The position numbers and the translations under genes were made by a program. From Octopus vulgaris (Eukaryota): 64,000 nucleotides of DNA. Where the stretch lies: assembly GCA_951406725.2 (NCBI GenBank), contig OX597823.1, forward strand, positions 39,990,001 to 40,054,000. The letters run 5' to 3'. The first letter of the stretch is position 1. Each line of letters begins with the position of its first letter. Under the pieces are notes generated by a model. That model was not told the DNA's origin. It worked only from the letters and a program-made list of their open reading frames with translations, and ran no database searches. Below, one piece after another: positions 1,191 to 63,535 of this stretch.

Positions 1191-1226
1191 CTTTAACATT
1201 TCGAGCCTACGCTCTTCCACAGAAAG
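1191..1226 (-). ncRNA. Minimal hammerhead-like motif, A6U core variant, inside a TA-flanked insert (~1096-1248)
   Basis: Minus strand: CUUU-CUGUGGA-A-GAGC(GUAG)GCUC-GAAA-UGU-U-AAAG; stem I CUUU/AAAG, stem II 4 bp. Confidence 0.55.
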
Positions 1227-1289
1227 GAACACAGAAAGAAACAAAGAGATATATATATATTTGAGTGCACATATGTTGAATCCATGTAT

Positions 1290-1505
1290 ATGAGCGATGG
1301 CTAGAAGTATATTGAGTTCTTCATAACCAGCTGATCTAGCAAGCGGAGCCTCATATCAGTGAGGGGGGCCGGTGCGCATTGATGCCGTTGAGAGGTAGGC
1401 CCCGAAACGGTGCGCATTCTCTCCTGATGACCCCATACACTTGCTAGCTTCCGATATACGGAGCTTTTAACTGGTAGCACTTGCATGTGCAAGTTGTTTG
1501 CAAGA
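1290..1505. repeat. Unclassified dispersed repeat, second copy at 45645-45862
   Basis: Colinear similarity (atgagcgatggctagaag...ctagcaagcgg...gaaacggt...ttgctagc...aagttgttt) between the two loci. Confidence 0.8.
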
Positions 1506-3062
1506 CATCTGAGCATGTGTATATGTGTGCATATGCACATGTGTTCATGCATCTATCTGTAAAAACAGATATAAACCCAATATATATGGATGTGTTTATC
1601 AATCAATGAAAACATACTAAAACTGGTGTCATGCATGCATGTATATTTCTCGCAGCTAGACCACAATGCCAACTGTACTGGAGATCAGTTAATTACTGCT
1701 TGAAATAATCCAAGTTTATGTTACCTATTTTGTTAGTCTTACAAGAATGGATTTCATCTTGGTACAGATGAAATCAAAACATTAGACACCAAACCAGAGG
1801 CTAGTAAACAACTGCGTCAGTTTTGCTACCATTTGTATGTATTTCACTAACCCACACACCTCTCACAAACAGATGAAGTAAACATCGCAGAAACTGCAGA
1901 GGCTACTCAGAAGTGTTTCAAGCTCTTCTAATTTCATCTCAATGTTGGAATCCCTTCTGTACTGTTGGCAGGTATCTCAGGGTCACAAGCAAAACTAGTA
2001 AACATCAACATAGTTTTACTATCACTATCCCACCCAATCAACTTGCAAGTATAAAGCATAACAAGCTACCAAGTACTCCAACAACAGGTCACTGAACATA
2101 TATTATAGCAGTTAGTGAGATCATTGTTCATAGAGATAGGGTTTCTAAGTACTCCTGCTAGAAGGTGCCACTCCTCAGATTGAAGATACAGCTTGTCTAA
2201 GTTCCACTAATGAAAATTTGCTTTATTATCAGCCTTCATTTACCAAAATTCTTGGCATTATATTTGCTACAGCAGACATGCACGCACACACAAACACATA
2301 CAGATCATCTGCTGGCTACTGTAGTAAAATGTTAACAACCTATTAAGAATGCCAGACATACATTTTTTGTTCTTCCACTTATTAAAAACTAACAATCTAC
2401 TTAATTATTAAACTCTACATTAGGCCATTTATAAAAACAAGCAGCAACAATAAGAGAAATTAAGGACAGTAGATCTAGTACCAAAATTCAATACACTAAA
2501 TCAATAAATTCTATATCTGTTCACCCACTGCATCACTTTCAAATCAGCATTCATAGAATTTATTCTTCAGGCAAATTTTGTAGTAAGTTATTGTGGCATT
2601 TTACTGGTTTATTTTCACTACAAGGCTTGCAGTTTGGCTCCAATTCTTAGTTGGAAATGCTTAATTTCAGTCTGTTAAGAAGGTCCCTCAATAACCATGT
2701 TGTGTATTCTTCTACAGTCCTGGGCTGACCAAAATCTCATAAGTGGATATTGGTAGATGGAAGCTAAAAGAAGCCCATGCATGTGTGTGTGTGTGTGTGT
2801 GTGTGTATCTACCTATCTATCTATCTATCTATCTATCTATCTATCTATCTATCTATCTATCTATCTATCTATCTATCTATCTATTATATATATATATATA
2901 TATATATATATATATATATATATATATATATACATATATGTATGTATGTATAGACAGATAGATAGATATAGATAGATACATACACACACACACATATATA
3001 TATATAGATATACATACATACATAAATACATACATACATACATACATACATATATATACACG

Positions 3063-3937
3063 CAGGGTGTAATGGGTAAATTGTTGCCATTTTATATTTT
3101 TAATTTTGCACAATGTTTGTTTTTGATTTTGTTGACTAGACAATATAGTAGGGTTAGTGGGACACTGTCTGTGAGAAAAAAAACAGCACCATGATGCAGT
3201 TCACTCTGCCAGAAATTTGGAAAAGAAATGCTGTACTGCTTAGCATTTGCATTGAAAACTCCAATATGAACATTTTAGTGTTTGGGTGTCAATCTGAGGA
3301 CAGTGCAATCTGATGACATATACTGAGAGTGATACAAATCAAACATCCAGTCAACATCAGGGTGTTTGGAGTGATCACTTGTGATGGCAACGTTATACCT
3401 TGATTCATCTTCCCACACAGCCCCAGACTCAACACGGAGGCCTACATCAAGTGCCTGGAGGAGGTAGTGCTGCCCTGGATCAAGAGAGTGGTTGCTGGAA
3501 GACTCGATGTCTAGGAACAGGACTCTGCACCATGCCACACAAGGAGAACCCAGTCATGGCTGTCAGACAATATCTGTGACGACATCACCCCTAATATCTG
3601 GTCACATAACTCCCCAGATTGCAACCCTATTGATTATAATGTGTTGGGCGCAGTTGAGCAAAAGACCAACAAAACTCTTTGTAACATCAAAGGTGTACTA
3701 AAAGCAAAGATTATGGCAGCATTCACCAACTTAAACAAGGAGACTGTCCAGAAGAGCTGCAGGAGATTCGGAAGTTGTCTGGAGGCCATGGTTGGAGCCA
3801 ATGGCGATTTTATTGAATATATTTGCTCTTTAGTATTTCAAGATATTTTCATGTAATTTTGGTAAATATATGTTAAATGAGATGTCAGTGTTATTTTCAT
3901 TTATGCGTAATTTAGACAGTTTGTTCACCACACACTG
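3063..3937 (+). mobile_element. Internally deleted maT (DD37D, Tc1/mariner superfamily) transposon relic
   Basis: Translates to QDSAPCHT..WSHNSPDCNPIDY; D-D spacing is 37 in the consensus with copy 2; degenerate TIRs cagggtgt.../...cacacactg. Confidence 0.85.
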
Positions 3938-4008
3938 AATATGTATATATATATATATATATATATATGAAAGAAGGTTTGAAAATGCAATTTTAAAGAT
4001 GTTTATTC

Positions 4009-4050
4009 ACTTGACCGGTTTCACTTTTTTAGAAAAAGATTGTCAAAACT
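4009..4050 (-). ncRNA. Hammerhead ribozyme motif, U3:A8 variant (left arm)
   Basis: AGUU-UUGACAA-UCUUUUUCUAAAAAAGU-GAAA-CCGGU-C-AAGU; palindromic stem III ACCGGU, GUC site. Confidence 0.65.
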
Positions 4051-4209
4051 AAAATGTAAAGCTTTGTATGAGCTTTGTTGTGTTAAGTACTGGTTATCAC
4101 AAAAATATTAAAATACATATATACATTCTTTGATAATAATAGGAAAATGTTAGAAACATTTTACAAGAAAGTATTAACACAATAAAGCTCATACAAAGCT
4201 TTACATTTT

Positions 4210-4251
4210 ACTTTTGACAATCTTCTTCTAAAAAAGTGAAATTGGTCAAGT
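4210..4251 (+). ncRNA. Hammerhead ribozyme motif, U3:A8 variant (right arm)
   Basis: ACUU-UUGACAA-stem II-GAAA-UUGGU-C-AAGU; stem I ACUU/AAGU intact, stem III mutated. Confidence 0.6.
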
Positions 4252-62200: not shown

Positions 62201-62822
62201 GAGAGAGCGAGCGTGGGACAGAGGAAGCGAGAGGTTTTTAGCAAGGTTTATAGTATTAGATATCAGATGAAAAGAGACGACTTGTAGTTGAAGATGTAGT
62301 TCGATGCAATATAATAAATTAAAACAAACAACAACAAAAAAAAATGTGCGCATGGGGGTGGGATACAAGAGGAAATCTTGCCTCATCTTCATTCATAAAG
62401 AATGTTTAATTACTGGTTATCTATCTATCTATCTATCTATCTATCTATCTATCTATCTATCTATCTATCTATCTATCTATCTATCTATCTATCTATCTAT
62501 CTATCTATCTACCTACCTACCTACCTATCTATCTATTTATCTATCTATCTCTATACATGCACAAATACATACTTGTGTATCTACCCATACCATCTCTCTC
62601 TCTCTGTATGTATGTATATATATATATATATATATATATATAAATAATAAATATTAGGGAATAAATCCAAATTTACAGGGAAAAAAATCAGATTTAGGAT
62701 TAAATCCAATTTTATAGTAAAATATTATAAAATATTATTAGAGACAAAACCACTATTTTGCAAAACAAACAAGGAAAGACTTAATCAATACATAAAATTT
62801 TAATAAATAGTCAAAAAAACCG

Positions 62823-62865
62823 CCACTACAATCGTTTCTTGTCTTGATCGACAATCTTCAGGTGG
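62823..62865 (-). ncRNA. Type I hammerhead ribozyme (left arm)
   Basis: Mirror of 63493-63535. Confidence 0.8.
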
Positions 62866-62900
62866 ACTTCCAATCGTGGAATATCTGTAAATCCTTCAGG

Positions 62901-62999
62901 CTATATATCGTGGATACTCATATCATCATGGATTTCTGATGGAGTCATGCCTTCCAAATGAAGGTACATTATGACAGCAAGATACTCAGTTTTCTCCAT
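62901..62999 (-). pseudogene. Mariner transposase N-terminal fragment (left arm)
   Basis: Mirror of 63359-63457. Confidence 0.7.
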
Positions 63000-63358
63000 T
63001 TTCCTTGTAATCTCGACACTTGTTTATTGAAAAATCTTATGACCATTGCCAGGAAAACTTTCAGCGACGCTATCCTTCCACTTGTATAGTTATGATCTAT
63101 TCTCTCCCTCTGTGATGTGCGCGTGTGTTTATTTTGGGTAGAAAAGGAAACAAATGACCATCAGATCATGTAGAAGTCTGTAAGTCCTTGCGTGTAATCC
63201 TGAGTATATTCATTTTCTACCCAAAATAAACACACGCGCACATCACAGAGGGAGAGAATAGATCATAACTATACAAGTGGAAGGATAGCGTCGCTGAAAG
63301 TTTTCCTGGCAATGGTCATAAGATTTTTCAATAAACAAGTGTCGAGATTACAAGGAAA

Positions 63359-63457
63359 ATGGAGAAAACTGAGTATCTTGCTGTCATAATGTACCTTCAT
63401 TTGGAAGGCATGACTCCATCAGAAATCCATGATGATATGAGTATCCACGATATATAG
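63359..63457 (+). pseudogene. Mariner transposase N-terminal fragment (right arm)
   Basis: MEKTEYLAVIMYLHLEGMTPSEIHDDM(SIHDI*) matches the MEK.E.RAVIK(Y/F)L.LKG.TP.EIH..M start of the first HTH of mariner transposases. Confidence 0.7.
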
Positions 63458-63492
63458 CCTGAAGGATTTACAGATATTCCACGATTGGAAGT

Positions 63493-63535
63493 CCACCTGA
63501 AGATTGTCGATCAAGACAAGAAACGATTGTAGTGG
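63493..63535 (+). ncRNA. Type I hammerhead ribozyme (right arm)
   Basis: CCAC-CUGAAGA-UUGUC(GAUCAA)GACAA-GAAA-CGAUUGU-A-GUGG; GUA site, predicted cut after 63531. Confidence 0.8.

Follow-up and report, generated by a model that had tools for sequence, protein, structure and literature searches.

Introduction

Penelope-like elements (PLEs) of the Hydra clade are described by Craig et al. (2021, PMC8557442) as having a C-terminal GIY-YIG endonuclease (EN), RWK and DKT motifs, a CxCx5C linker, CxxC and CxH, together with a hammerhead near the end, (TA)n targets, an inverted 5′ copy and an optional tail. The clade's stated host range takes in molluscs (PMC8557442). Here we analyze a 64,000-nucleotide stretch of the Octopus vulgaris genome (assembly GCA_951406725.2, 2.8 Gb; contig OX597823.1; C10:39,990,001-40,054,000), hereafter the window, which holds several families of small hammerhead-bearing fold-backs, designated A to H2. 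Two of these, A and B, resemble the Hydra clade in these traits. Hammerheads in pseudo-long terminal repeats (pLTRs), thousands of solo motifs, opposite-strand pairs, a mollusc Hydra clade, TA targeting and tails are already in print. The new part is splicing and the capture of host exons, which an earlier note on this DNA, made from its letters, had missed: the family B element likely copies spliced RNA, pieces of host mRNA included, into new genomic places.

Differences from the Hydra clade as described in PMC8557442 are also evident. Family B is about 6 kb long, against generally <3 kb; KWK takes the place of RWK, the ORF has an Asn-rich insert, and the leader contains a 1.8-kb intron. Tails measure ~55–90 nt rather than 30–40, and spliced copies go unmentioned in the accessible text of that source. 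Reported PLE hammerheads share with ours a short palindromic helix III, an extra base after A9, a U3-A8 variant, and occurrence both singly, by the thousands, and as pairs on opposite strands; the intron end also abuts helix I in Penelope of D. virilis. A natural G3-C8 family, here of at least 1,810 copies, is unmentioned in the accessible reports of PLE hammerheads, and the motif load extrapolated here is several tens of thousands against the thousands reported.

Three further systems are close. Poseidon PAc studied in vitro (Frangieh et al. 2024, PMC11167929) likewise has two internal priming sites that define tails, an AT-rich target and a mainly uncut RNA template; that work used a synthetic RNA, whereas in the octopus genome one can count what spliced and unspliced templates have each produced. 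PLE-mediated gene mobilization in Adineta vaga (Arkhipova et al. 2013, PMC3846280) likewise moves host sequence and leaves palindromic inverted junctions. The Adineta genes retain their introns, lie between pLTRs and were proposed to derive from an antisense template; here, by contrast, host introns are gone and exons are fused to the element acceptor. Non-LTR retrozymes (10.64898/2026.07.22.740005) are likewise non-coding hammerhead units related to PLE pLTRs and occur as dispersed monomers; they form head-to-tail tandems, whereas the window loci are single or head-to-head. Finally, a 2026 octopus repeat annotation reports 31 recently active Penelope-like families (PMC13282606), and its main text, as far as accessible, is without the words hammerhead, ribozyme or retrocopy. 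In a literature search that mostly did not cover subscription journals and supplements, we came upon no description of numerous spliced PLE copies or of host exons captured through an element acceptor; the supplements of PMC8557442, PMC4209133 and PMC13282606 may list these families.

Many family B copies carry a spliced junction at a fixed acceptor

The full-length family B element (L093) carries direct motif pairs 6 kb apart that flank an 837-aa open reading frame (ORF; L093/L207). In L207, a 23-nt exon ends at a GT donor and is followed by a 1,818-nt intron and an AG acceptor, which sits 9 nt before stem I of the hammerhead; the ATG lies 286 nt past the acceptor. In short family B fold-backs exon 1 is joined directly to exon 2, and a second donor 4 nt downstream is in use too (L152, L242, L264).

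Genome-wide, the start of exon 2 plus the core occurs in 850 exact copies; this and the other pattern counts below refer to arms rather than insertions and to pattern-exact copies only, and the reversed control was 0 for each. The acceptor, and with it the intron, is retained in 304 of the 850, which are the long copies, and the exact main spliced junction stands in 295 intron-less short ones, a lower bound, with 251 left unclassed. The first 30 copies along C1 comprise 7 unspliced, 22 spliced to exon 1 and 1 joined to foreign sequence; four of the 22 have variant letters, and some hold only ~5 nt of exon 1. Exact exon-1 remnants measure ≤23 nt in all arms but one (L260) and stop at a word that we take to be initiator-like. 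Intron-retaining, self-spliced and host-exon classes all switch at the same acceptor base. Judged from these copies, splicing likely determines what the family B element copies.

Host exons are joined to the element acceptor

The family B fold-back in the window is composed of host exons followed by element exon 2 (Table 1). In the copy at 62726–63632, three C3 exons that span 64 kb at their source stand in order and are joined to the acceptor base. The two arms are 424 nt long and 100% complementary; the minus arm ends at the long "tail" site and the plus arm at the short one. Host exon A is 5′-truncated in the plus arm and complete on the minus arm, from 63162. Host exon B is presumably an exonized piece of a mariner-like transposon, to judge by its translation.

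Foreign sequence meets the same acceptor base at nine loci, the window and eight others. The last exon was read for five source genes, and in each of them the junction coincides with a GT donor; several internal host introns are missing from the captures. The captured pieces include exons from a C17 gene cluster (L034), at least five exon-sized blocks of a gene for an immunoglobulin-domain membrane protein (L275), the 5′ part of VPS54, whose nearest named matches are molluscan (L270), and a C6 exon at 100% identity (L269). Two loci, L246 and L470, contain a common C29 exon ending at the same host donor and carry different exon-2 alleles; the source of L277 was placed by position only. Later VPS54 exons were not found in the 100 kb past the first coding exon (C11:56.25-56.35 Mb). 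A 100-N gap lies 3 kb downstream of it, and the C6 retrocopy may therefore hold exons absent from the assembly.

These copies resemble processed retrocopies in their absent introns, exon-exact junctions and new location. They lack the poly(A) tail and the 3′ origin of copies made by long interspersed nuclear elements (LINEs): they contain 5′ or middle host exons and end in the element tail and (TA)n. Host exons that have lost their introns and been fused to the acceptor require a spliced sense template.

Families A and B are the ends of coding Penelope-like elements

Families A and B are the ends of young PLEs with intact reverse transcriptase (RT) and GIY-YIG ORFs. Family A runs upstream into a 710-aa ORF (parent L464). 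A protein search with a distant relative returned top matches of one length class, the three fetched being family A, and 61 of the 63 top-scoring matches to the related protein were stop-free. Both ORFs contain QxDI, LYRDD, (R/K)WK, DKT, CxCx5C, Y(T/I)G, CxxC and CxH. The Hydra-clade motif set with C-terminal EN is complete in L464, and L093 has KWK instead of RWK. Atlas neighbours at 0.96–0.99 carry RVT_1, GIY-YIG and HTH_animal, and the named relatives of the element ORF are cephalopod. A partial tandem pLTR, an inverted 5′ copy and an optional tail are present in L091–L096 and L464, the hammerhead lies within the pLTR, and insertion is into (TA)n as in the Hydra clade. Membership of A and B in that clade is probable, from motifs matched to the published description.

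Longer copies joined to Penelope ORFs, which the earlier note had proposed to look for, thus exist for two families (A and B). The Penelope-like origin that it gave to all of its loci holds for these two and is putative for C, D, E, F, G, H1 and H2.

Three observations concern the coding copies and their surroundings. The family B ORF has a long Asn-rich stretch between RT and EN (L093:1212-3725), similar to inserts described for the Penelope elements of Adineta (PMC3846280). Immediately upstream of one family A copy is a LINE that has endonuclease and RT frames (L342:1423-4438). An inverted pair of an older family B subfamily (L313, C28:10713347-10715563) has the same acceptor position and stems, with another stem II loop and N7.

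A proposed model of internal priming that copies only the RNA lying 5′ of the site

We consider it probable that the RT starts from a site within the RNA, a short way downstream of the hammerhead, and copies nothing but the RNA lying 5′ of that site, spliced or not. All enzymatic steps of this model are read back from genomic copies. The protein would first nick AT-rich or (TA)n DNA and then start synthesis from either of two priming sites within the RNA, one of which yields the short end and the other the long tail. With the element's own mRNA as template, nothing but the leader lies upstream of these sites, and the product would be a dead-end mini of 170–260 nt that stops at the transcription start. 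A read-through RNA with a whole upstream copy would give a long product that retains the intron. Where a host transcript is spliced to the element acceptor, most likely that of an element copy in a host intron, host exons would be copied instead. The cDNA end may then fold back and prime a mirror arm, with the second priming site giving the other end.

Several features of the copies bear on this model. In families A and B the 3′ end lies at one of two fixed points, and the sequence runs on upstream into the intact elements. Family A is bimodal: 18 of 30 copies start ≤13 nt from stem I and 12 are long; family C 5′ ends gather, by inspection, ~20–25 nt before the core. Free copies of families A, B and C have inversion junctions that differ from copy to copy, and many fold-back junctions are small palindromes. 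Since the copies span the predicted cleavage site, the template was apparently uncut, and the hammerhead would therefore be cargo in these copying events. Internal priming at two sites on uncut RNA has been seen in vitro for another PLE (PMC11167929), and self-priming was proposed earlier for palindromic inverted junctions (PMC3846280); by analogy, the mirror arm is best read as a product of self-priming. Family C, which also inserts at AT-rich sites other than (TA)n, has target duplications of 9–13 bp in 12 of 19 scorable loci (control words, 3–8 bp), and these fit target-primed insertion.

A number of results weigh against this account. Splicing was seen only in family B; it was considered for family A and dropped, as family A minis are unspliced: what precedes stem I in them is element sequence, and an AG is missing from that position in one subfamily. 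By inspection, 5′ ends in family D do not clearly pile up. The ORFs went unrecognized in Pfam, NCBIfam and single-sequence PDB searches, and the only match in a profile search of the ORF was to a group II intron RT (E 0.6). Families C, D, E, F, G, H1 and H2 were tied to no ORF, and a coding parent sought for family C was not found, none of 55 sampled copies being long. Nor did any source gene examined have a family B acceptor of the right type downstream in cis, three regions having been searched at length. On C3 there is no family B acceptor in 365 kb, and the nearest exact same-strand acceptor is 3.8 Mb off; the 50 kb searched at two C28 paralogues contain no acceptor of the matching subfamily, only another subfamily being present there; and C6 has no family B acceptor in 29 kb and no exact allele match for 33 Mb. 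Two of the stretches searched for cis acceptors each contain a 100-N gap.

Rival readings of the captured exons and the minis

Those missing acceptors favour a different route to the host exons, trans-splicing, in which element RNAs that begin within the intron offer an unpaired acceptor to the donors of other pre-mRNAs. One of the three regions has an exon that matches the retrocopy at 100% identity, and L246 and L470 differ in exon-2 allele despite a common host donor. Against this, the assembly is a single haplotype, gaps persist in two of the searched stretches, and young intronic insertions that trap exons would be expected to be rare or lost. The allele difference between L246 and L470 falls at a CpG, and the same 2-nt indel separates both loci from both of the assembled C29 paralogues, and this places their source allele outside the assembly. 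A missing haplotype is the simpler reading, with direct support at C29, and we regard trans-splicing as unlikely. We are just as doubtful of the wider idea that the PLE traps exons in trans across the genome: host donors would be trans-spliced to its acceptor just ahead of the hammerhead, and internal priming would insert the 5′ part of any such mRNA as a palindrome in (TA)n. If true, this would be a source of retrogenes and hairpin RNA that requires no element within the gene.

The minis themselves might be self-propagating non-autonomous elements, similar to short interspersed nuclear elements (SINEs) or retrozymes, each with its own master. Family C, with 1,810 matches and the absence of long copies noted above, would suit such a life cycle, as would a 12-unit tandem array of 535-nt hammerhead units elsewhere in the genome (L315) and the 5286 fold-back, which is 98% identical at 39 other scored places. 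The last identity is, however, due to a carrier: all 29 loci share ~1.5–2 kb of flank. In addition, free copies of A, B and C each have their own inversion junction, and neither the donor nor the DNA before the start is still present in spliced family B minis. We therefore find self-propagation improbable and prefer internal priming for the minis. The many distinct mini-families of the earlier note are accordingly mostly not self-propagating; their junctions vary, and the family B minis are copies of the element's spliced leader.

The carrier is a 2-kb composite repeat (4598–6592) containing a family F tail, the family C fold-back, a SINE-like piece and a 107-nt tandem. It is shared by 29 of 29 other loci at 92–99%, accounts for 5 of 30 sampled family C copies, and is presumably Helitron-like, judging by its ends. 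We had considered family C as a fixed unit like a miniature inverted-repeat transposable element (MITE) and dropped this, as the flanks belong to the larger repeat and the junctions of free copies are variable.

Tandem repetition of the retrozyme kind is absent from the window and was met with in L315 alone (C28:10732001-10742000). This array has 12 hammerheads at 535-nt spacing, with most units 98–99% alike, and ends in (TA)n. From its sequence we class it as a non-LTR retrozyme-type array related to family E.

Addition of the host pieces by template switching or DNA repair instead of splicing is very improbable: template jumps have been proposed for PLEs (PMC3846280) and some long copies have patched 5′ ends, but nine of nine foreign junctions fall on the same acceptor base, five of five read sources end at a GT donor, and internal host introns are absent. 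Least credible of all is a reading of the fold-backs as DNA transposons resembling MITEs, with long terminal inverted repeats and with hammerheads that arose by chance, for despite the long inverted arms and TA context there are 6 motifs against 0.13 in shuffles, the arms are unequal and variable rather than fixed and symmetric, intron loss is precise, and the sequence is continuous with RT/GIY-YIG ORFs; for A and B, the ORF links and splice junctions refute it.

Implications

Intron retention is stressed in the PLE literature and has been called unexplained (PMC8557442). In family B, copies of spliced sense RNA are about as frequent as those of unspliced RNA, but the former are only leader-sized dead ends. 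This provides a simple, testable reason why full-length PLEs retain the intron. A PLE that makes processed copies of host exons does the reverse of the intron-keeping mobilization reported earlier. In L1, spliced insertions (SpIREs, spliced integrated retrotransposed elements) and 5′ transduction reportedly also turn spliced element RNA and upstream host exons into insertions; L1 is said to prime at the poly(A) end and to have to copy the whole element, whereas family B copies the leader only, with a fold-back. Copies that are long palindromes could give double-stranded RNA against the source gene, a putative effect. The genome is also a source of intact young elements that could be studied in vitro, and of a hammerhead family with a natural G3-C8 pair.

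Hammerhead motifs in the window

A descriptor scan for type I hammerheads that permitted any Watson-Crick 3-8 pair found six motifs in the window with a perfect core, three helices and an NUH site. Dinucleotide shuffles of 300-nt blocks gave a mean of 0.13 and a maximum of 2, and none of 100 reached 6; the motifs are thus real by the shuffled control that the earlier note had called for. A descriptor confined to C3-G8 found three perfect motifs and overlooked the swapped cores. Rfam returned no hammerhead and only simple-repeat noise among the 150 of 292 matches listed.

Most of the about 11 loci listed in the earlier note are real families, whether intact, variant or decayed (Table 1), and, as it said, they are largely unrelated, with no real similarity between families. 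Two fail. At 35221 there is no recognizable core, and at 9650 the core and stem II are present while stems I and III are poor; neither has a relative among the loci examined. Seven inverted duplications, the number that it gave, are present (3961–4298, 5156–5414, 9525–9997, 11614–12021, 53189–53552, 62722–63637 and 19238–19323). Its association with (TA)n applies in part: 9 of 14 motif positions lie ≤150 nt from a (TA)4 run, compared with 28% of background positions, and for the 6675 motif the nearest run is 847 nt away.

Table 1. Features of the window (positions in the 64,000-nt stretch)
Feature	Position	Strand	Remarks
Family B fold-back in (TA)n	62641..63632		reads as copies, head to head, of a spliced chimera of host exons and element exon 2
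Element exon 2	63484..63632	+	acceptor position to short 3′ end; follows intron AG in L207
Element exon 2 with long tail	62641..62874	-	~85 nt past short end
Host exon A	63209..63322	+	source C3:28793182-28793308, AG..GT
Host exon B	63323..63439	+	source C3:28852542-28852659, AG..GT
Host exon C	63440..63483	+	100% identical to C3:28857159-28857202, AG..GT; joined to element acceptor position
5′-most 46 nt of captured RNA	63163..63208	-	source searched, no match
Family B hammerhead	63493..63535	+	canonical core, near-palindromic helix III; predicted cut after 63531
Family B mirror hammerhead, other arm	62823..62865	-	perfect core, descriptor scan
Family A mini fold-back	19160..19324		inverted long tail, then hammerhead and short end
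Family A type I hammerhead	19258..19296	+	perfect core; in fold-back loop
Family C fold-back	5092..5414		passenger here in composite repeat 4598-6592
Family C type I hammerhead	5286..5336	+	swapped G3-C8 core pair; perfect core
Family D fold-back	3961..4330		U3-A8 motifs at 4009(-) and 4207-4254(+), decayed here
Family E copy, partial inverted arm	11614..12175		motif 11835-11909(+), long stem II
Family F fold-back	53189..53620		decayed motifs 53222(-) and 53456(+)
Family G U3-A8 motif	43418..43454	-	perfect core; stems I and II only 3 bp
Family H2 motif	6675..6709	-	perfect core; neither fold-back nor beside (TA)n
Family H1 motif	1191..1226	-	one core mismatch; A6 to U in all relatives displayed
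Old fold-back	9525..9997		doubtful partial motif near 9650-9723(-)
Tail-only fold-back	40594..40945		family B relative, hammerhead-free; unlisted in earlier note
Tail-only fold-back	52945..53122		matches unit of tandem hammerhead array elsewhere; unlisted in earlier note

Relatives elsewhere clarify the decayed members. The family D motif at 4210 is of the U3-A8 type with stem II broken in the window, and the core is TTGACAA in 26 of 30 family loci. The family E motif at 11835 has the core CCGATGA and a 46-nt stem II region; among 23 scored relatives, 11 have CTGATGA and 10 CCGATGA. Relatives of family F show the full hammerhead motif (11 segments), and the family H2 core is frequently CCGACGA. 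A donor-like GTAAGT word stands in the long stem II loop of family E (window 11852–11890) and in that of the L315 array family.

Genome-wide abundance and ribozyme potential

Pattern matches across the assembly number 7,260 for family A, 1,810 for family C (G3-C8), 1,141 for the CTGA form of family H2 and 256 for the intact motif of family D. In 679 kb not selected for hammerheads, only 110 kb of which was sited at arbitrary positions, 29 motifs were found against 1.6 in shuffles. Twelve of these come from one array; counting it once leaves 18 loci, or ~24/Mb above background. This extrapolates to roughly 60–70 thousand intact-core loci, one per ~40 kb. The window is ~3-fold denser in intact motifs than this genome-wide estimate, and the earlier figure of one locus per 6 kb is too high.

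Folding predictions for six whole fold-backs left the core 0–15% unpaired in four (62721, 5096, 3961, 53186) and 67% and 87% unpaired in the other two (19160 and 11611). The large ribozyme reservoir envisaged in the earlier note thus appears weaker than suggested, with the core predicted to be buried in four of six and several families having non-canonical cores. A6U is found in the relatives of family H1, and C is frequent at position 4 in families H2, A and E; CpG decay may therefore have produced some of the window cores that look canonical. Homodimer energies were more favourable than those of two monomers, a comparison with no shuffled control that we do not count as evidence. PLE hammerheads have been reported as weak even as dimers (PMC4209133, PMC6765202). 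Families B and C are the best candidates for putative self-cleavage.

Further repeats in the window

Two further degenerate hammerhead-like motifs, unlisted in the earlier note, lie at 790–845 and 54190–54230. Fold-backs with no detected hammerhead occur at 22713–22969, 61563–61714 and 54601–55110, the second of these being a fold-back of an abundant SINE-like repeat. The labels mariner-like, Helitron-like, SINE and initiator-like used here are presumed assignments. The stretch at 3060–3900 gives the impression, from its sequence, of a decayed DNA-transposon-like fragment.

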